Below are positions 3,286 to 32,281 of a stretch of 54,853 bases of DNA, in pieces. Numbering within the stretch: position 1 is the first letter of the stretch; every line of letters begins with the position of its first letter. The notes beneath the pieces are model-generated. The model did no database searches. It was not told the DNA's origin and was given only the letters and a program-made list of their open reading frames with translations. The position numbers and the translations under genes were made by a program. This DNA comes from an uncultured Planctomycetales bacterium (GTDB lineage: Bacteria > Planctomycetota > Phycisphaerae > UBA1845 > PWPN01): NCBI GenBank assembly GCA_964617025.1, contig CAZTVU010000002.1:1-54853 (forward strand), read 5' to 3'.

Positions 3286-3452
3286 GGGGAGACATGGAAG
3301 GGGTTCGGTGAATTCTTCCGGATAATCCAGGGAGGTGGGTGCAGGGAGAGCGTCGACGTGCCGGCGGAGCGGTGCCACATGCCAGATGTGGCTTCATAAT
3401 GTTTAGGGCGAAGAGGTTTGGTGCAAGTCCCTTTTTGATGAAGGAGCGAAGC

Positions 3453-4109
3453 ATGTTGCGAGTTACGTTTGTTGGTATGGCCTTGCTGGGACTCAGCGTC
3501 TCGGCGGCGATGGCGGCACCGGGCGATTCGTGGATTCTGCCGATTCACCATCGTGACGGCGGCGGCTGGACTGAACTGCCTGGGGCCGGTTATGGCGGGT
3601 CAAGTGCCTGGCAGGCGAGCGGGGCGGACGGCGTCCGCCGCGTGTACTGGGAGCTCGACGGCCCGGGCGTTCCCACAACCACCGAGCTGTACACGATTCA
3701 GGCCTTCGCGCCGACGGCGGGACCGGGCAACTGGCAGCCGATCGAATCCCAGTTCAAAGGCGTCAACGGCGAGACCTATCCCATTGAGCCGCTGATTCCC
3801 TGGGTGGGCGCTTTCGGCACGAACCACCAGTACATCGGCAGCGACTTTGGTGACGCCGAGCGCGGGACATTCGACGCCACCGGCCCCGGGCCGCACACAC
3901 CCGATAGCGCTGACTACAATGCCGGCGCCGGCGGCACGTACATGTGGCTGACCAAGGGTTCGTGGCTGTACGCCAAGTGGGACTTCCCTTGGTCCATCGA
4001 CCGTGCATGGAGCGCTCTGAAGCTGACGCAGGTCACGCCGGAGCCGACGAGCATGATCCTGCTGGCTCTTGGCGGCGCGGCGGTGCTGCGTCGCAAGAGC
4101 CGTGTCTGA
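3453..4109 (+). CDS. Secreted PEP-CTERM domain protein (exosortase-sorted type), function unknown
   Basis: ATG at 3453 preceded by AAGGAG (3441-3446). Signal peptide MLRVTFVGMALLGLSVSAAMA. C-terminal VTPEPTSMILLALGGAAVLRRKSRV gives PEP, a TM helix and a basic tail. The longer ORF-track start (3339) lacks these features. Confidence 0.8.
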   Translation: MLRVTFVGMALLGLSVSAAMAAPGDSWILPIHHRDGGGWTELPGAGYGGSSAWQASGADGVRRVYWELDGPGVPTTTELYTIQAFAPTAGPGNWQPIESQFKGVNGETYPIEPLIPWVGAFGTNHQYIGSDFGDAERGTFDATGPGPHTPDSADYNAGAGGTYMWLTKGSWLYAKWDFPWSIDRAWSALKLTQVTPEPTSMILLALGGAAVLRRKSRV

Positions 4110-4213
4110 TGCGGGCGTAGCGGAACGCTGCAAGTGAGGAAACGGAAACTGGCAGAGCAGGGACGCGCGGCGTGCCTGCCCTGCCAATCCTTTGCGCGGA
4201 TGAGGAGGATCGC

Positions 4214-5254
4214 ATGGCGATGCGAAGCTTGGCGATCGGAATCGTGATGTTGGTGGCAGGGGGGTCGGCCGCGGGCGCCGTGGTCTTCTACGACGGCTTC
4301 GAAACGGGTATGTCCAACTGGAGCGCATGGCAGGATCTGAGTTGGGTCAGCGGGACGGCCGGATGCAACAGGGAATCCAACTGTTGGGGGCCGTTCCAGC
4401 TGTTTCAGTCCGATAATCACCCGCGGACGGGGTCCAAGTGCGCCCGCCAGGAGCAGGCGCAGCCGTGGTGGTACGGAAGCCGGATCGCCACCCCACTGAT
4501 CCTTCCGCCGGACAAGACGGTTCGGCTGAGCGTATGGCAGTTCGAGGACGCCAACCCCATGTTCCGGCAGCCGGCGACGAATCCGCCCGCGCCCGGCGAT
4601 CCGCGCCAATACCACGACCACGACCAGGTCCAAGGGTGGGTCTGTCTGATGGGCGGCGAGGGCGGTGAGGAGGAGACGGAGTTCTTCGCCATCGGCGTGC
4701 ATGCGCACTGGGCCAGCCCGGAGCCCGTCCTGGACTGGTGGCGGAACCTGTCCTGGTCGACGGGATGGGACTCCTGGCACACGACGTCCTTCGCCCGCGC
4801 GCAGGGGTTTCGCCACCTGGAGATCTGGGTCCATCCGTACACCGGCGGGCCGGCCGACGTGCAGTTCTTCATCAACGGCGAGAAGGTCGGCGAGGCCCCC
4901 CGTTTGCCCGGATCGACCTCCACCGGCGTGCCCGTTCGGTGGATTGCTCTTGGGGCCAACCCGACCTATATGGCCGAGGACTACATCGCCAACACGTATG
5001 AGTTCTTCTGGTACGACGACGTGAAGGTGACGGTCGGCGCCCTCGGCGATTACGACGACGACGGCGACGCGGACCTCGCGGACTTCTCGCACTTCCAGAC
5101 CTGTTTCAACGGCCCCAATCGGCCCGCGGCCGATCCGGTCGCCTGCCTGGATGCGGACATGGACAGCGACGGCGACGTGGACCTGGCGGACTTCGGCGTG
5201 TTCCAGGCCTGTTTCAACGGGCCGAACAATCCGGTGCCGGCCGCCTGCCGCTAG
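4214..5254 (+). CDS. Secreted protein with an unknown N-terminal domain and a C-terminal Cys-containing tandem dockerin-like (EF-hand) module
   Basis: ATG at 4214 preceded by GAGGAGGA. Signal-like MAMRSLAIGIVMLVAGGSAAGA. The C-terminus is DYDDDGDADLADFSHFQTCFNGPNR...DADMDSDGDVDLADFGVFQACFNGPNNPVPAACR. Confidence 0.8.
   Translation: MAMRSLAIGIVMLVAGGSAAGAVVFYDGFETGMSNWSAWQDLSWVSGTAGCNRESNCWGPFQLFQSDNHPRTGSKCARQEQAQPWWYGSRIATPLILPPDKTVRLSVWQFEDANPMFRQPATNPPAPGDPRQYHDHDQVQGWVCLMGGEGGEEETEFFAIGVHAHWASPEPVLDWWRNLSWSTGWDSWHTTSFARAQGFRHLEIWVHPYTGGPADVQFFINGEKVGEAPRLPGSTSTGVPVRWIALGANPTYMAEDYIANTYEFFWYDDVKVTVGALGDYDDDGDADLADFSHFQTCFNGPNRPAADPVACLDADMDSDGDVDLADFGVFQACFNGPNNPVPAACR
5045..5251 (+). repeat. 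Coding tandem repeat: two dockerin-like Dx(D/N)xDxD-V-DL-x-DF-xxF-xx-CFNGPN units (copy set 1 of 3 in the window)
   Basis: Two about 25-codon units in one frame. The same module recurs at 27681-27890 and 32081-32278. Confidence 0.85.
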
Positions 5255-25628: not shown

Positions 25629-25835
25629 GAGCATGTTGACGGGAGATTGGGGCTGGGACATCGTCGTGCGTCCCGAGCGCCTCGGCAACATTCTGACGGA
25701 CGCCATCGATCGGCGTGGACGCGGAGGCGTTTCACATCAGGAGGCGTTGTGTGAGTGGGAAGAGCAGCCCAGCGGGCGCGCGCCCTTGGGTCGTGAGGAA
25801 TGCCGCCAGCGCCTTGGTGCGCGGGGAGAATGCCG

Positions 25836-27893
25836 ATGAGAAGGTCACAACGAATGCTCCTGGTGCCGGTCGTTTGCGCGGTTGCCGCGACAGCAGTCGT
25901 GGGCGCCGTTGTTTTCGACGGGATGATCGACTTCGACCCGGGCGGAGAGTGGGAGGGCCGTTTCGGGGCGTTGCAGGACAATTACACCCAGTTCGGCAAC
26001 CAGATCCTGGGTGGCTACTCCGGCTCCGAGATCGATGAGCTTTATGTGCAAACCGACGGCACGTTTCTTTACGTCGGCGTCACGGGAAACCTGGAGGAGA
26101 ACGGCAACAGCCAGATTATCCTTTTGGACGTCAGGCCCGGCGGGCAGCAGATACTCGCGACGGAGATCGCACCAATCGTGGCCGAACTGCCCTGTTCCGG
26201 CAATGGACCGCCCTACGCCGTGCAGAACCTCGGACAGGCACTCACCAACGACGCCGGTACACCGCCGCAGACCATTCGCGACGCCGCGACGACCGGTACG
26301 ATCCTGGATCCGGGCTTCGAACCGGACTACGCCATTGCGGTGGACACCTTCGGGCATGTCGTTCACGTGACGCAATACGATCTCTACGCGGTGTCGCAGG
26401 GCACATGGGACGACCCGGGTACCAATGATGGCACGCCCTGCGGACCGCCCAACGAAGCCCTCGCTTACTTCGCCACGCGGACCTATCGCGGCCAGACGGA
26501 CGTTGACAGCGGGACCGGCGTGCTGGTCAACGGCAATAACCCCAACGGATCGGAGTTCGCCTACAACAACACGGGATACAACGGAGTCACGGGCAACACG
26601 GTAGCGGCGCCTGGTTCCAGCCTGCCGGGCGACCCCCGAACACAAACCACCGGCCTTGAGGCGAAGATCGCGCTGGCGGACCTCGGCATTGCCGTGCCGC
26701 TGACGGGGGAGTTGACGATCCGAATTGCCGTCGTACTCACATCGGGCGGCGGGAGGGTCAGCAGCCAGACCTTGCCGGGAATCGGCGGCCCGAACCCGCC
26801 GGCCGACATCGGCCTACGACCGGACTTCGCGGCGATCCCCGGCAACCAGTTCGCCAGCGTGACGCGGGTCCCGACGCTCGATGCTCCGGTGATCGACGGG
26901 CTGAACATCCCGGCGGAATTCGGCGTGAGCGATCTCGTCGCCAGTCAGGACACACCGACCAGCTTTGGCGACCATCCGCAGAATCCGGACCTCAACACGG
27001 CGGGGTCGGAGCTCGACCAGTTGTTCGCCGGGAGCGATCGCAGCCTGGAGATCGCGATTACCGGCAATCTCGAACCCAACGGCAATAACCTGGTCATCTT
27101 CCTCGACACGTTGCCGGAGCAGGGCGAGGGCCTGACGAACGCGCTGGATGCCAACGCGGGGCGAATCAGCGGCCTGGCCACGGACAAGATCCCGCTCGAC
27201 GCCGACTACGCCTTAGTCATCAACAACTGGCAGGGGACCATCTATGTCGATCTAATAGATCTTATCAACAACACGTCGACGTACATCGGGGCGAACGGCA
27301 CCAATACCGGCGAAGGCATCCTGGAAAACGGCGGACCGGTCGTTGGGTGGGAGGTCGCCCTGAACAACACGAACGTGGTGGGCGTCGACGACGACGGGTT
27401 CAACGACCCAATCATTCAGCAGGCCAACGCGGCAACGGCCACGACGGGATTCGAGATCAAGATCCCGCTTTCGGCCATCGGTGCGCCCGCGGATGCATCG
27501 ACCGTCTGCCTCTTCGCCGTGATCACGGGGGGCGGGTATCTGTCCAACCAGTTTCTGCCTGCGGGGGTCGGCGGCGGCTGGTCCAACTTCGGCAATCCGC
27601 CGGTCGACCTGACCGCCTACGGCTACTCGTGTCTGCCGGTCGTCATCCACAACCCGCCGCCCTGCAACGCGCCGCCTCAGGACACGGACGGCGACGGCGA
27701 CGTCGACCTGGGCGACTTCGGCCAGTTCTCGGCGTGTTTCAACGGACCGAACCGCGCCTGGTCCGGGCCGCCTGCGGACCAGAATGTCTGCCGTTGCGTG
27801 GACGCCGACGGCGACCTGGATGTGGATCTTACTGATTTCAGCACGTTCAGCGGGTGTTTCAACGGGCCGAACCGGCCGCCGGTCTGCGGCTGA
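25836..27893 (+). CDS. Large secreted protein with an internally duplicated beta-sandwich/CBM-like domain and a C-terminal Cys-containing tandem dockerin-like module
   Basis: Signal or anchor MRRSQRMLLVPVVCAVAATAVVGAVV. Duplicated motifs are SEIDELYVQ..VGVTGNLEENGNSQIILLDV versus SELDQLFAG..IAITGNLEPNGNNLVIFLDT, and TGLEAKIALADLG versus TGFEIKIPLSAIG. The C-terminus is DTDGDGDVDLGDFGQFSACFNGPNR...DADGDLDVDLTDFSTFSGCFNGPNRPPVCG. ATG 25830 is an alternative start. Confidence 0.8.
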   Translation: MRRSQRMLLVPVVCAVAATAVVGAVVFDGMIDFDPGGEWEGRFGALQDNYTQFGNQILGGYSGSEIDELYVQTDGTFLYVGVTGNLEENGNSQIILLDVRPGGQQILATEIAPIVAELPCSGNGPPYAVQNLGQALTNDAGTPPQTIRDAATTGTILDPGFEPDYAIAVDTFGHVVHVTQYDLYAVSQGTWDDPGTNDGTPCGPPNEALAYFATRTYRGQTDVDSGTGVLVNGNNPNGSEFAYNNTGYNGVTGNTVAAPGSSLPGDPRTQTTGLEAKIALADLGIAVPLTGELTIRIAVVLTSGGGRVSSQTLPGIGGPNPPADIGLRPDFAAIPGNQFASVTRVPTLDAPVIDGLNIPAEFGVSDLVASQDTPTSFGDHPQNPDLNTAGSELDQLFAGSDRSLEIAITGNLEPNGNNLVIFLDTLPEQGEGLTNALDANAGRISGLATDKIPLDADYALVINNWQGTIYVDLIDLINNTSTYIGANGTNTGEGILENGGPVVGWEVALNNTNVVGVDDDGFNDPIIQQANAATATTGFEIKIPLSAIGAPADASTVCLFAVITGGGYLSNQFLPAGVGGGWSNFGNPPVDLTAYGYSCLPVVIHNPPPCNAPPQDTDGDGDVDLGDFGQFSACFNGPNRAWSGPPADQNVCRCVDADGDLDVDLTDFSTFSGCFNGPNRPPVCG
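27681..27890 (+). repeat. Coding tandem dockerin-like repeat module (copy set 2 of 3)
   Basis: Two D-x-D-x-D-x-D-V-D-L-x-D-F-x-x-F-x-x-C-F-N-G-P-N-R units with four conserved Cys. Confidence 0.85.
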
Positions 27894-28008: not shown

Positions 28009-28680
28009 ATGCGAGCGATCATATTGACAGCCCTGTTTGCGACATTCGCCGCGCCCGTCTGGGGTGCGTACTACGTGGCGGGGGATTTCAACGGCTGGAA
28101 CGCCGCGGGAAACATCATGACGGACATGGGGGGCGGCGTGTGGCAGGTGGATCTGAGCAATGTCGGCGGGCGGCACGAGTTCAAGGTCACGATCGGTGAC
28201 TGGTCGCAGAGCTGGCCCGGCAGCGGAAACAGTTGGTTCTTCGGCGACGGCGCCGGCAACGTCACTCTGACGTTCAACGCCAACGACATACAGGACGGCT
28301 GGCGAGGCAACTGGGGCCGTATGGGCACCAGCACCGACCCCGGTACCTGGACCGCCGTGGGGGATTGGCAGGGCTGGAACAACGCCGGCAACGCCATGGT
28401 CGCGCAGGGCGGGGGCATCTATCGGTACGAACAGGTCTTGGCGCCCGGTTGGTACCAGTGGAAGGCGGTCGTCACCGGATCGTGGGATGCGATCGGGGAC
28501 GACTTCCGCAGCGTCAACGCAAACACCACCTGGTTCGAGGTGACCGCGGCGAATCCGATCGCGGTGTTTGAGGTGAACGCCCTGGCCGGCATCGAACGGG
28601 TCTACACGATCCCCGAGCCCGCGACACTGGGGCTGGTTGCCGTGGGCGTTTTGGGCATGGTTCGGCGCCGGGGGCGCTAA
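28009..28680 (+). CDS. PEP-CTERM-anchored protein with two starch/glycan-binding-type modules (CBM20/25/48-like pattern)
   Basis: AGGAGG lies before the ATG at 28009, with signal MRAIILTALFATFAAPVWGA. Module 1 is YYVAGDFNGWNAAGNIMTDMGGGVWQVDL...HEFKVTIGDWSQSWPG. Module 2 is WTAVGDWQGWNNAGNAMVAQGGGIYRYEQVLAPGWYQWKAVVTGSWDAIG. C-terminal IPEPATLGLVAVGVLGMVRRRGR is a PEP-CTERM. Confidence 0.8.
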   Translation: MRAIILTALFATFAAPVWGAYYVAGDFNGWNAAGNIMTDMGGGVWQVDLSNVGGRHEFKVTIGDWSQSWPGSGNSWFFGDGAGNVTLTFNANDIQDGWRGNWGRMGTSTDPGTWTAVGDWQGWNNAGNAMVAQGGGIYRYEQVLAPGWYQWKAVVTGSWDAIGDDFRSVNANTTWFEVTAANPIAVFEVNALAGIERVYTIPEPATLGLVAVGVLGMVRRRGR

Positions 28681-28718: not shown

Positions 28719-31430
28719 GTGCTCATCCGCCGGTCGATACAACGGGGATGGGCAGAGCCCCCTGGGGGCGATCCAAACCGTGCGGGGGAACCCTGCTTGC
28801 CCGCGAAGAGGTCCCCAGGTCGGTCGACGGTCTTATGCCTTGCGGCAGCCGTAGTGGTCTCCGCGCCGGCCGGCGCACAGACAACCGTCGTCACGCTCCA
28901 ATGGTTCGAGACCTCATGGCGAACCATGGAAGACCGGACGGCGGACGCGTTCATGGCCGGATACGGGCGAGTCTGGACTCCGCCGCCGAGCAAGGGAGAA
29001 AACGGGACCGCATCCATCGGGTACAACGTCTTCGACCGATTTGACCTCGGCAGCCCGACTGCACGCACTCGATACGGGACTCGGGACGAGCTTCAGGCGG
29101 TCGTCGCGGAGCAGGACAAGGCCGGGATCTCCACCTTCATCGACCTGGTTCTGAATCACAACTCGACGAGTGACGCCGGCACCCCGGGCTTCGCGGCGGC
29201 GGGCGGTTATCCCGGCTTCGTGCTGAGCTGGGGCGTTGATTCTTTCGGGGACTTCCACGACCCTGGGGAGACGGACGTCATCCGGATGCGGCTTGCCGGC
29301 CTCATCGATGTCGCCCAAGAAAAGAACTATACCTTCTACCGGCACCCGATCACCCCGGGCGATCCCCACAACATCCCGGCCGGCACCGTCCGCAACCGGC
29401 CCGATCCGAACAACCGGCAGTATTACCCCGATGCACAACTGCCGGCCAACAGCATCGGGATTCATCCGTTCAACCCCGCCGATCCGCTCGCCGGCGACCC
29501 CTACCTGGAGAACGCCACCGGACTGCTCCTGCGGCACGTGCAGTGGATGCTCGAGGTCATCGGGGTGGACGGCTTTCGCATCGACGCCGCCAAGCACATG
29601 CCCGACTGGTTCTTGCGGGACTTCTACGACCGCCAGGTCTGGCAACGCGGTCCGCGGGATCTGAGTGGGAACGCCACCACGCCCTTCAGCTTCATGGAGA
29701 TCTTCGACGGCAGCCTCGGCTGGCATTCCGGCTACGTCTGCAAGGGGGGCAACGGCAACTGCAACACCTCCGGGGGCGTGCAAGGCAATCGCGATACGCT
29801 CGACTTTCCGCTTTACTTCGCGATGGCGAGTAACCTCGGCGGCAACGGGCTGGGGTCCTGGGAAAACATCATCCACGCGAGCGTGGATGCGATTCTCGAC
29901 GGCGACGCGAATGACGGCGACTTCGGCGTGCAGTTCGTGCAGAGCCACGACCAGTACGCCCCCGGCGACGACAACCTTGCCTACGCATACATCCTCACCC
30001 GGACGGGCTCGCCGATCGTCTATTTCCAGGCGGGGGAGTTCGGCTCCGTGAGCTTCCCCAAGCCGGGGCGAGGCGACGCCCTGGGCGGTCCGTACGGCGA
30101 TCTGCTTACGCGGCTCGTGGACATCCACAACGAGTACGCCCGCTGGGGCTGGTGGGCGCGGCGCGATCCGGGCAACTCGAGCTTCGACGACGTCCTGGTT
30201 TTCGAGCGGTACAACAGTCTGCTCGTCGGTATCAACGACCGTCACGACGGCGGCTACGATCAGCGCACCGTGCAGACCGCATTCGCGGCGGGGCAGCGGC
30301 TTCGCGAACTGACCGGGAACGCGGCCGACCCGCTTGTCGACCCGAACGACGACCTCGGCGACGTCGTCACCGTCGGATCCGGCGGGTGGGTCACTCTTCG
30401 CATCCCGCGAAACCGAAACGCGCAAGGCGTGGCGCACAACCGCGGCTACGTGATGTACGGCCCCGCGAACCCGGATGGCGACCTCGTTGTCACACCCGTT
30501 GCGTCAACGATTCCCGCAGACCCGGAAGGCACGCCGAACGCCACGCGGCGACTGACCGAGATGAAGGTCATCACGGCCGACTCGTTCGAGGTCCGCCTGG
30601 AAACCGTCGATGCCGATCCGCTCGACCCCGACGAGGACGACCTTGCACTGCTCAAGATGGATGCGGGCATGGACCTCAACGGGAACGGAGCCATTGATTT
30701 CGTCGACCCGGGCTTCGTCGGGTACGGGTTCGAGGACTTCCTGACGCAGGCCGTATCGCTCGAGAGCGGCGGCGTCAACATCAGCGGGACGCCAAAGGGC
30801 CTGTACCGCCAGACGATTGACGCCACGAAGCTGTCCGAAGGGCGCCACTACCTGACGGTCATTGCCTTCCGCCGCCGCCCCGCCGGCACCCCGCCCGTCT
30901 TTGAGACCTGGCGGCAGGTGCTCTACGTCGATCGGCAGCCGGCGGCCGTCGCGAAGACGGCGCCGGGCAGCGGTGAGACCATCATCGCAACAACCTACAA
31001 GTTCAGCGTCCGGTCGACCGACGGTACGGTCAGCGCCGCGAGCTTTTTCCTCGATATGCCGCCGGGGACGGACCTCGTGTCACTCGCCCGCAGCGGACAG
31101 GGCGCGGCCGCGCAGGATGATCGCTATCTATTTGGCAGGAGCTTCACCGGCCTGATCAGCGGAAACCATCGCCTGGATGTGGTCGTTTTCGAGGAGTCCG
31201 GGCGAGCCGCCGTGTGCTCGTTCCCCGGCATCCGCGTCGTGATCGCCGGCCGGAGCGGGCTTGGTGACTTCAACGGCGACGGCCTGGTCAACAACTTCGA
31301 CATCAAGGGCTTCGCCGCCGTGCTGAATGCCAACGGTTTCGATCCGCGCGCGGATCTCAACGGCGACGGCATCGTGGATGCGACCGACCGTGCGCAGTTT
31401 GTCGCGATGCTGACGGGAGGTGGGGGATGA
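28719..31430 (+). CDS. Secreted GH13 alpha-amylase-family enzyme with a long C-terminal extension and a canonical tandem dockerin
   Basis: GH13 regions DLVLNHNS, GFRIDAAKHMP, FMEIFDG and FVQSHDQ. Signal LCLAAAVVVSAPAGAQ. The C-terminus is GDFNGDGLVNNFDIKGFAAVL...DLNGDGIVDATDRAQFVAML. The probable true start is TTG 28797 (a GGGGGAA SD-like element lies upstream); 28719 is the ORF-track GTG. Confidence 0.88.
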   Translation: MLIRRSIQRGWAEPPGGDPNRAGEPCLPAKRSPGRSTVLCLAAAVVVSAPAGAQTTVVTLQWFETSWRTMEDRTADAFMAGYGRVWTPPPSKGENGTASIGYNVFDRFDLGSPTARTRYGTRDELQAVVAEQDKAGISTFIDLVLNHNSTSDAGTPGFAAAGGYPGFVLSWGVDSFGDFHDPGETDVIRMRLAGLIDVAQEKNYTFYRHPITPGDPHNIPAGTVRNRPDPNNRQYYPDAQLPANSIGIHPFNPADPLAGDPYLENATGLLLRHVQWMLEVIGVDGFRIDAAKHMPDWFLRDFYDRQVWQRGPRDLSGNATTPFSFMEIFDGSLGWHSGYVCKGGNGNCNTSGGVQGNRDTLDFPLYFAMASNLGGNGLGSWENIIHASVDAILDGDANDGDFGVQFVQSHDQYAPGDDNLAYAYILTRTGSPIVYFQAGEFGSVSFPKPGRGDALGGPYGDLLTRLVDIHNEYARWGWWARRDPGNSSFDDVLVFERYNSLLVGINDRHDGGYDQRTVQTAFAAGQRLRELTGNAADPLVDPNDDLGDVVTVGSGGWVTLRIPRNRNAQGVAHNRGYVMYGPANPDGDLVVTPVASTIPADPEGTPNATRRLTEMKVITADSFEVRLETVDADPLDPDEDDLALLKMDAGMDLNGNGAIDFVDPGFVGYGFEDFLTQAVSLESGGVNISGTPKGLYRQTIDATKLSEGRHYLTVIAFRRRPAGTPPVFETWRQVLYVDRQPAAVAKTAPGSGETIIATTYKFSVRSTDGTVSAASFFLDMPPGTDLVSLARSGQGAAAQDDRYLFGRSFTGLISGNHRLDVVVFEESGRAAVCSFPGIRVVIAGRSGLGDFNGDGLVNNFDIKGFAAVLNANGFDPRADLNGDGIVDATDRAQFVAMLTGGGG
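31266..31427 (+). repeat. Canonical (Cys-free) type-I-like dockerin duplicated F-hand at the amylase C-terminus
   Basis: DFNGDGLVNNFD...DLNGDGIVDATD are two 12-residue Ca-loop motifs, each followed by a helix. Confidence 0.75.
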
Positions 31431-32281
31431 CGCGGTCACTTCCGCTTCGCGTTTCGCGGTTTGCACGGCTGGTTCATGTCGTGGCCGTCGCGATGTTTGC
31501 CGGCACGGGTACGGCGACCGCACAGAACTGTATCTGGCTGAATCAGAACCCGGATGACGGCGGACTGTTCGCGACGAAGAACCCTGCGCCGGGCGTCGTC
31601 GTCGGGCATTCGACCGAGCTGTATATCTGGATCAGCAAGAACACGGCGATCGCCGGCTACGACGGAATCAGCCTGGACGTCCACGTGGAGAGCCCGGACG
31701 GCGGTCAAGTGGACACGGAAATCGCCGTCGACAACGAAGGCGCCCGCTGGGACGCGGTGTACGGCGGCACTCCGCTGCCGGGCACCGGCGGGACCGGCAT
31801 CGACAACGCCAACGCCATCGACCTGACAAACACCGACACCACCGGGACCGATCCGTTCCGGTTCGCTCGGCTCACGTTCACCGGCCGGCAGGTCGGGACG
31901 GTCCGCGTCTTCCTCGGGATCGGCGACAAGGGCGTTGCGGACAACGGGACGGTCCCTTCGTTTTACATCGGTATGATCGCAGAGGGCACTACGCCGGAGT
32001 CGCCCGCCGTGTCCGGTGGCAACTACGGCGCGACGTCGAGCATTCCTGAGGCCGTCATCACCGTGTTGTCGGGCCCGGTAGGGGACTACGATGACGATTC
32101 GGATGTGGACCTGGCGGACTTCGCCGTCTTCGGCTCGTGTTTCAACGGCCCCAACCGCCTGCCGGCGCAGCCCGGGTGCGCAGGCGTGGACGCGGACGGC
32201 GACAGCGACGTGGACCTCACAGACTTCGCGCAGTTCCAAGCCTGTTTCAACGGTCCGAACCGCAAGCCGGCGTGCGGCTGA
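31427..32281 (+). CDS. Secreted protein with a cohesin-like N-terminal beta-sandwich (hypothesis) and a C-terminal Cys-containing tandem dockerin-like module
   Basis: The ATG at 31427 overlaps the amylase TGA (ATGA). Signal RFARLVHVVAVAMFAGTGTATAQ. The body (ELYIWISKNTAIAGYDGISLDVHVES...DPFRFARLTFTGRQVGTVRVFLGIGDKGVADNG) resembles cohesin strand patterning. The C-terminus is DYDDDSDVDLADFAVFGSCFNGPNR...DADGDSDVDLTDFAQFQACFNGPNRKPACG. Confidence 0.8.
   Translation: MTRSLPLRVSRFARLVHVVAVAMFAGTGTATAQNCIWLNQNPDDGGLFATKNPAPGVVVGHSTELYIWISKNTAIAGYDGISLDVHVESPDGGQVDTEIAVDNEGARWDAVYGGTPLPGTGGTGIDNANAIDLTNTDTTGTDPFRFARLTFTGRQVGTVRVFLGIGDKGVADNGTVPSFYIGMIAEGTTPESPAVSGGNYGATSSIPEAVITVLSGPVGDYDDDSDVDLADFAVFGSCFNGPNRLPAQPGCAGVDADGDSDVDLTDFAQFQACFNGPNRKPACG
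32081..32278 (+). repeat. Coding tandem dockerin-like repeat module (copy set 3 of 3)
   Basis: Same two-unit CFNGPN module as at 5045-5251 and 27681-27890. Confidence 0.85.

Follow-up and report, generated by a model that had tools for sequence, protein, structure and literature searches.

A predicted dockerin-fold module with paired cysteines at the C-terminus of putative secreted proteins from an uncultured Planctomycetales bacterium

Three proteins encoded in a 54,853-nucleotide stretch of DNA from an uncultured Planctomycetales bacterium (hereafter the window) end in the same cysteine-containing tail of about 65 residues. Structural modelling indicates that this tail is a genuine dockerin-fold domain with two duplicated Ca2+-loop-plus-helix segments, and sequence comparison places it in a lineage-specific 'CFNGPN' dockerin subtype of one uncultured Phycisphaerae family. 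On balance, the tail probably serves as a surface docking or retention tag that would tether secreted proteins to a shared surface receptor.

The C-terminal module and its predicted fold

The window is contig C2 of a 372-contig assembly (5.14 Mb, 87% complete). A preliminary description of it had proposed that one tail closes three otherwise unrelated proteins. Indeed, the translations match the peptides quoted there, and each tail reaches the stop codon of a long open reading frame (ORF) that begins with a signal-peptide-like stretch (4172/4214-5254, 25800-27893, and 31427-32281; the first has an alternative GTG start at 4172). The three module copies and their host proteins are listed below, with scores against a profile hidden Markov model (HMM) built from the three copies.

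5048-5251, forward strand: module copy 1, four Cys, DYDDDGDADL...PVPAACR, at the end of its ORF (stop codon 5252-5254); 123.5 bits against the three-copy HMM
4214-5254, forward strand: host protein 1, with signal peptide MAMRSLAIGIVMLVAGGSAAGA and a body ending in ...FFWYDDVKV before the module
27663-27890, forward strand: module copy 2, six-Cys subtype, with an upstream Cys in PPPCNAPPQ and then DTDGDGDVDL...NVCRCVDADGD...PPVCG (stop codon 27891-27893)
25800-27893, forward strand: host protein 2, 697 amino acids (aa), with a signal peptide and a large body
32084-32278, forward strand: module copy 3, four Cys, DYDDDSDVDL...RKPACG (stop codon 32279-32281); 125.5 bits against the three-copy HMM
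31427-32281, forward strand: host protein 3, 284 aa, with a small body after the signal peptide; the start of its ORF overlaps the stop codon of an amylase gene (ATGA)

Of the tail ranges first given (5045-5251, 27681-27890, and 32081-32278), the first and the third include one codon too many at their start, a Gly codon. Pairwise identity among the three tails is 59-65%, and they share 35 invariant columns, which include the Asp ladder, the Cys, and the CFNGPN motif; this motif had been called invariant and is present twice. The last Cys had been placed 2-3 residues from the C-terminus, but in each tail only one residue follows it. Likewise, the count of four Cys per tail is right for copies 1 and 3, whereas copy 2 has six: an additional Cys precedes the first loop by 6 residues, and the linker contains a CxC.

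The three-copy HMM was run, as had been suggested, against related genomes and against all six-frame ORFs of this genome. The full module was found in 149 ORFs here, and the likeness of the three tails is therefore not due to chance. The four Cys were kept in 147, 135, 144, and 131 of the 149 copies, respectively, the six Asp of each loop (positions 1, 3, 5, 7, 9, and 12) in 139-149 copies in both repeats, and the sequence CFNGPNRP after the helix was nearly invariant in both repeats. The module lay no more than 11 residues from the stop codon in 135 ORFs (91%), and Cys followed by exactly one variable residue ended 97 of these 135 terminal copies. The position, described earlier as strictly C-terminal, is thus mostly so; however, about ten copies were internal, with 125-1,500 residues and further domains after them, and tandem copies (double or triple), single-repeat tails, and one split copy were also found. 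Metagenomic relatives contained two to six modules, and some of these relatives consisted of little beyond a signal peptide and modules. A 168-aa ORF on contig C7 combines a signal peptide, one module that lost its second Cys pair, and a PEP-CTERM anchor. The copies are neither ordinary PF00404 dockerins without Cys conservation nor randomly placed in proteins, the two outcomes that had been named as refuting the proposal.

Copy 3 was modelled using AlphaFold2 and 41 paralogues. The model had a predicted local distance difference test score (pLDDT) of 95.6 with helices at residues 11-20 and 46-55. Its best matches among PDB structures in a Foldseek search were almost all dockerins, namely 2y3n_B (template modelling (TM) score 0.68/0.74), 3kcp, 2vn5, 5m0y, and 6kgd, with TM scores of 0.5-0.74; the weak E-values (0.08-1) are in line with a domain length of 66 residues. 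The predicted fold is accordingly that of solved dockerins, and the two tandem loop-helix segments of about 22 residues that characterize Dockerin_1 (PF00404) are seen as the Asp ladder and the modelled helices. All 41 copies tested matched this Pfam family at E<0.1, the best at 5e-9. About 50 of the approximately 150 genome copies passed its gathering cut-off of 22.9 bits, while the three window copies scored 12.5-19.3 bits (copy 1, 12.5-15.9 bits) and remained under it. The EF-hand pair family PF13499 (cut-off, 30 bits) was not reached, with a best score of 19.1 bits. The tail had been described as dockerin-like, with two EF-hand-type Ca loops; the duplicated loop-helix bears this out, but a mere look-alike it is not, since by predicted fold, and by Pfam in about one third of the copies, it is a true dockerin.

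The module was found throughout one taxonomic family. All 24 genomes of the same family had matches, from 10 to more than 147 each, and genomes from other families of the order had 0 to 96; the Cys conservation proposed for three tails extends over about 150 paralogues and this whole family. The exact motif [FL]QxCFNGPN was found in only four other species genomes, those of Phycisphaerae bacterium Zod_Metabat.304 and three uncultured Planctomycetales metagenome-assembled genomes (MAGs). When the profile was searched against 1.84 billion representative proteins, 15,387 matched at E<=1e-3 and 3,265 at E<=1e-10. A precomputed Pfam match to a dockerin was present for only about 12 of 114 public homologues, and the names of almost all homologues were 'hypothetical' or taken from the body.

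Two known dockerin types were compared with the module. The NCBIfam model NF041540 (dockerin_GC, 'GC-type dockerin domain-anchored protein', from Phycisphaerales and Phycisphaera sp.) likewise describes a C-terminal dockerin-like module of about 60 residues, bracketed by Cys and ending in Cys plus 0-1 residue. Both have the helix motif DF..FQ and hundreds of unrelated secreted carriers per genome in the same class, and the present module also acts as a C-terminal tag on many unrelated secreted Phycisphaerae proteins. However, none of the genome copies passed the NF041540 cut-off of 29 bits (best, 26.1), and the window copies scored 13.5-18.2 bits or did not match. The Cys pattern differs as well. 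NF041540 has one Cys two residues ahead of loop 1 and another that closes the C-terminus, in a terminal Gly-Cys, which corresponds to a single N-to-C clasp, whereas the Cys of the module would pair within each repeat. Its members read C[PR]AD...FDFLAFQN.F.AGC(x), without CFNGPN and without Cys after the helices, in contrast to ...FQxCFNGPNRP...C...FQxCFNGPNRPPACx in the module. The true members come from another genus of the class, named 'Phycisphaera sp.' or 'Phycisphaerales bacterium', with more than 200 candidates per genome. We therefore rejected membership in NF041540; the scores under the cut-off and the different Cys bracket point to a sister subtype of the GC-type dockerin, one that appears to lie outside every curated model. 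The phrase 'GC-type dockerin' was not found in the literature searched.

The type I dockerins of clostridial and ruminococcal cellulosomes (PF00404; 2vn5, 1ohz, 4fl4, and 2y3n) share with the module the duplicated F-hand, the fold, the C-terminal position, near-symmetric repeats, and species-specific versions. They have no conserved Cys, Gram-positive hosts, and defined cohesin partners, whereas the module has four to six Cys, occurs in a two-membrane host, scores mostly below the Pfam cut-off, and has no recognisable cohesin in most genomes. Dockerins can also far outnumber cohesins in a known system, as in R. flavefaciens.

Pairing of the cysteines

The preliminary description had deduced two disulfides from the four Cys, and comparison of the copies makes this plausible. 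A Cys at the end of each helix is accompanied by a Cys 10-13 residues downstream, the second of which is penultimate. One disulfide probably forms inside each repeat (first with second Cys, third with fourth), because single-repeat tails, pairwise losses, and relatives with only the first pair left all separate the Cys in this manner. About nine proteins end in a single repeat, a 'half-dockerin' consisting of the Ca loop, the helix, and CFNGPNRPPAC, with exactly one Cys pair. In one protein the two repeats are about 350 residues apart, each after a copy of the same Ig-like domain. The half-dockerins and this split copy were noted in a 1376-aa ORF on contig C18 and in these approximately nine ORFs. 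Furthermore, where copies in the genome depart from the Cys pattern, they have mostly lost both Cys of one repeat (contigs C11, C7, and C52/C249), with two single losses, and in the related genome G034 the first Cys pair is kept and the second repeat is free of Cys. The tails in other genera end in ...PGC-stop or ...ADPxC(x).

The six-Cys subtype of copy 2 shows a further regularity. A CxC linker is accompanied by a Cys no more than 12 residues upstream in 32 of 34 cases, as against 16 of 101 copies without it (Fisher p = 9e-17, for paralogues that are not independent). The subtype is conserved together with the body across genera. In these copies a third bond may connect the Cys just upstream of the module with the extra linker Cys.

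Two genes for VKOR-thioredoxin fusions (C37:17059-18282 and C40:454-1707) were found in the genome, and the end of C40 contains a third VKOR fragment; these suggest DsbB-independent disulfide formation in the periplasm. Since the genome encodes these fusions, periplasmic oxidation of the tail is plausible. The termini of classical dockerins are held by non-covalent clasps that are important for stability and cohesin binding (PMC3821032), and the Cys pairs of the module look like covalent equivalents of these clasps.

Diverse bodies and exchangeable tails

The bodies in front of the module are diverse, as the preliminary description had stated for the three window proteins. Sixty sampled proteins contained 62 Pfam families, none of them in more than four members; these included S8 and S15 peptidases, alkaline and purple acid phosphatases, GH123, apiosidase-like domains, CBM6/35, LTD, PKD, and BACON. 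By BLAST, 147 bodies fell into 74 clusters, 63 of which were singletons. No Pfam family was matched by the bodies of host proteins 1 and 2. Homologues of the first body were found in genomes G002 (59% identity) and G007 (35%), each with the tail version of its own genome. In the search with the whole 697-aa host protein 2, tail matches swamped the output and no body orthologue was seen; for the body of host protein 3, no homologue was found in five related genomes. A crude signal-peptide heuristic was positive for 95 of 137 complete module ORFs and 66 of 300 control ORFs.

The module is connected with the PEP-CTERM system, which is represented in the genome by 64 PEP-CTERM-like ORFs and four exosortases. 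A PEP-CTERM gene lay within 300 bp of a module gene in 22 of 149 cases, compared with 6.6 +/- 2.4 in random ORF sets, and 21 of the 22 were co-oriented. The bodies of nineteen PEP-CTERM proteins had a homologue among the bodies of module proteins, and in five cases the adjacent gene was the homologue. These adjacent paralogue pairs are located at C1:57170-58906 and on C28, C90, C9, and C127. Their bodies align from end to end with 43-57% identity and then diverge at the same point, for instance as '...WFDDVKLYEVPEP-TM-RRR' (TM here denoting the transmembrane segment) versus '...FFDEVTLIKIARPDFDADLDVDL...'. Because the paralogous bodies match throughout and then switch tail at the same junction, the PEP-CTERM tail and the module appear from sequence to be interchangeable address modules. 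In this genome both are attached to secreted bodies of the same kinds; however, a PEP-CTERM tag is a short motif with a transmembrane helix and a basic cluster and is processed by an enzyme, whereas the module is predicted to be a folded, soluble Ca2+-loop domain and has no transmembrane segment.

PEP-CTERM genes also adjoin the module genes at both window loci (3453-4109 and 28009-28680). The neighbouring features are as follows.

3453-4109, forward strand: PEP-CTERM protein encoded directly upstream of host protein 1 in the same orientation, ending in ...VTPEPTSMILLALGGAAVLRRKSRV
28009-28680, forward strand: PEP-CTERM protein encoded directly downstream of host protein 2 in the same orientation, ending in ...IPEPATLGLVAVGVLGMVRRRGR
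31260-31397, forward strand: ordinary Cys-free dockerin at the C-terminus of the amylase (28719-31430); 25.7-29.5 bits against Dockerin_1, over the cut-off of 22.9

The gene pair formed by the PEP-CTERM protein at 3453-4109 and host protein 1 recurs in the related MAG L087, and the two bodies are not homologous. The protein at 28009-28680, between host protein 2 and the amylase, contains tandem Trp-/Gly-rich repeats (YYVAGDFNGWN...) that give it the look of a carbohydrate-binding module. The PEP-CTERM neighbours were considered as a single receptor family, and this was rejected: 42 of the 64 were BLAST singletons, and the window's neighbour at 3339-4109 is unrelated to host protein 1. The amylase dockerin had been set apart from the tail, and rightly so, as it has no Cys and reaches 25.7 bits against the Pfam cut-off of 22.9.

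Exchange of this kind raises the alternative that the module is a C-terminal sorting or secretion signal recognised and removed by a dedicated machinery, like PEP-CTERM/exosortase or the C-terminal domain of the type IX secretion system. Besides the tail swaps and the enrichment of co-oriented PEP-CTERM neighbours, the extreme C-terminal position of 91% of the copies, the conserved penultimate Cys, the lack of a conserved cohesin partner, and the genome-specific tail versions described below are consistent with it. However, the tail is predicted with confidence to be a complete dockerin fold, and it is neither exclusively C-terminal nor limited to one copy per protein, as cleaved sorting signals are: internal, double or triple tandem, signal-peptide-plus-modules, single-repeat, and split copies all exist. 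Nor was a conserved cleavage motif found at the junction between body and tail; no candidate processing enzyme was found in an analysis that did not include genome-wide phyletic profiling, and the exosortases belong to the PEP-CTERM system. We consider a cleaved signal unlikely. Since internal, tandem, half, and split copies exist, a binding domain is the better explanation, and of the two roles in the preliminary description, sorting tag or attachment tag, attachment is the best reading and sorting the weaker one.

Attachment to a common partner is further addressed by the tail versions. Where a homologous body is present in another genus, its tail is of the version typical of that genome, as in the comparisons of G040 with C20 (56% over 469 aa), G027 with C25, G007 with C43, G010 with C133, and host protein 1 with G007. 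A version specific to each genome argues for a shared partner or machinery there, and it resembles the species specificity of cohesin-dockerin pairs.

Alternatively, the tail might have no specific partner and act as a Ca2+- and disulfide-dependent cap that stabilises or solubilises the protein, or as a timer that delays folding until a Ca2+-rich oxidising compartment is reached. Each loop contains six Asp and is extremely acidic, and the folding of dockerins depends on Ca2+ and on the clasp of their termini (PMC3821032), both of which would suit such a cap. It would leave unexplained, however, why L10, Q17, and FNGPNR after the helix are nearly invariant in both repeats of the 149 paralogues while neighbouring residues vary, and why the tail is uniform within a genome and differs between genera even on homologous bodies. 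Moreover, tandem copies suggest avidity, and most exported proteins of the genome have no tail. A role without a partner therefore seems improbable, and docking to a shared surface receptor is the reading followed below.

Candidate receptors and significance

Two Pfam cohesins (PF00963, 51.5 and 42.5 bits) were found in the genome, both in a single 2103-aa S8 peptidase, which is also one of the proteins with the module at the C-terminus, and iterated HMM searches revealed no further cohesins in the genome. In this protein (C125:375-6683, outside the window), the S8 subtilase is accompanied by a beta-helix-like region and by FN3/IPT-like domains; an ordinary dockerin-like segment stands between the two cohesins, and a four-Cys dockerin forms the C-terminus. 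Proteins of similar size (about 2,100 aa) are present in G007 and G022.

Another candidate is a family of about 240 aa (alignment A4) without Pfam assignment. It occurs between a signal peptide and a PEP-CTERM tail in three tandem genes on C135, between a signal peptide and the module on C103, and as a C-terminal domain after an internal six-Cys module on C30, C324, C41, and C155. Its model (pLDDT 89.4) is a beta-sandwich, and its best PDB matches were cohesins, namely 5lxv_A (E 6e-5, probability 0.99), 2zf9, 6kgf_C, and 2vo8, with TM scores of only 0.24-0.49. These arrangements mirror those of anchoring and adaptor scaffoldins, which we take as a lead only. Full-length matches were found only in some genera. 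Since the family has limited distribution, weak cohesin TM scores, and no profile similarity to cohesins, it is unsupported as a universal receptor.

The following points weigh against docking to a shared receptor. Pfam cohesins are absent from 18 of the 24 genomes of the family, each of which has 10 to more than 147 module matches; among the genomes without them are three congeners (90-98% completeness) and G006, G009, and G015 (91 to more than 147 matches). The cohesin pair of the present genome has no homologue in five relatives. The family of about 240 aa was not found in the module-rich genomes G007, G010, G015, and G040, and it has no profile similarity to other cohesin-like candidates, the body of host protein 3, or Pfam cohesins. 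The signal-peptide evidence is crude, and the genome-specific tail versions could stem from recent expansion or gene conversion rather than from co-evolution with a partner.

Because only two classical cohesins occur here, in one protein, and most relatives have none, we rejected them as the general receptor. A cohesin/dockerin 'planctosome', a non-cellulolytic surface complex with cohesins and dockerins on peptidases, was proposed for freshwater Phycisphaerae (Nemodlikiaceae) by Andrei et al. in 2019 (PMC6461901). The two-cohesin S8 peptidase is similar to its components and, with the proteins of about 2,100 aa in G007 and G022, would favour a classical system on scaffoldin-like proteins, but this is quite doubtful given two cohesins for 149 dockerins, no more in iterated searches, 18 of 24 module-rich family genomes without a Pfam cohesin, and no homologue of the cohesin pair in three congeners of 90-98% completeness. 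The planctosome model involves few Pfam-cohesin proteins and does not include a Cys-stapled subtype, an expansion to more than 100 members, or a link to PEP-CTERM.

Surface docking or retention remains on balance the probable role. In such a mechanism, the proteins would exit the cytoplasm through Sec, and the tail would be oxidised in the periplasm by the VKOR-thioredoxin enzymes and fold on Ca2+ binding. Once folded, it would be a non-catalytic docking tag, and about 150 different hydrolases, phosphatases, peptidases, and binding proteins would be retained by a common receptor at the cell surface. With recognisable cohesins excluded in most genomes, the best candidates for this receptor may be divergent cohesin-like beta-sandwich proteins, some of them anchored by PEP-CTERM.

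A more specific and rather speculative proposal, to which we assign a low probability, is that the Cys-dockerins are the plug side of a cellulosome-like display in a two-membrane bacterium. The sockets would be divergent cohesin-like proteins, some fixed by PEP-CTERM and exosortase, such as the family of about 240 aa on C135, and others acting as dockerin-bearing adaptors. If this is the case, about 150 enzymes and lectins per cell would be displayed on exosortase-anchored receptors, and the frequent operons that combine PEP-CTERM and dockerin genes would code for partners that fit each other, one anchored and the other docked.

A docking domain that is small, Ca2+-dependent, and stapled covalently could be used as a robust part of designer enzyme assemblies as well. 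Standard annotation misses the tail; with a model of its own, thousands of proteins would be labelled. Roughly estimated from the size of the 5.14-Mb assembly, about 3-4% of the genes of this organism carry the tail, and the same applies across the family of uncultured Phycisphaerae; the tail would therefore define most of their surface and secreted enzyme repertoire, that is, glycosidases, phosphatases, peptidases, and lectin-like modules. Identification of the receptor would show how extracellular degradation is organised in planctomycetes without classical cellulosomes.

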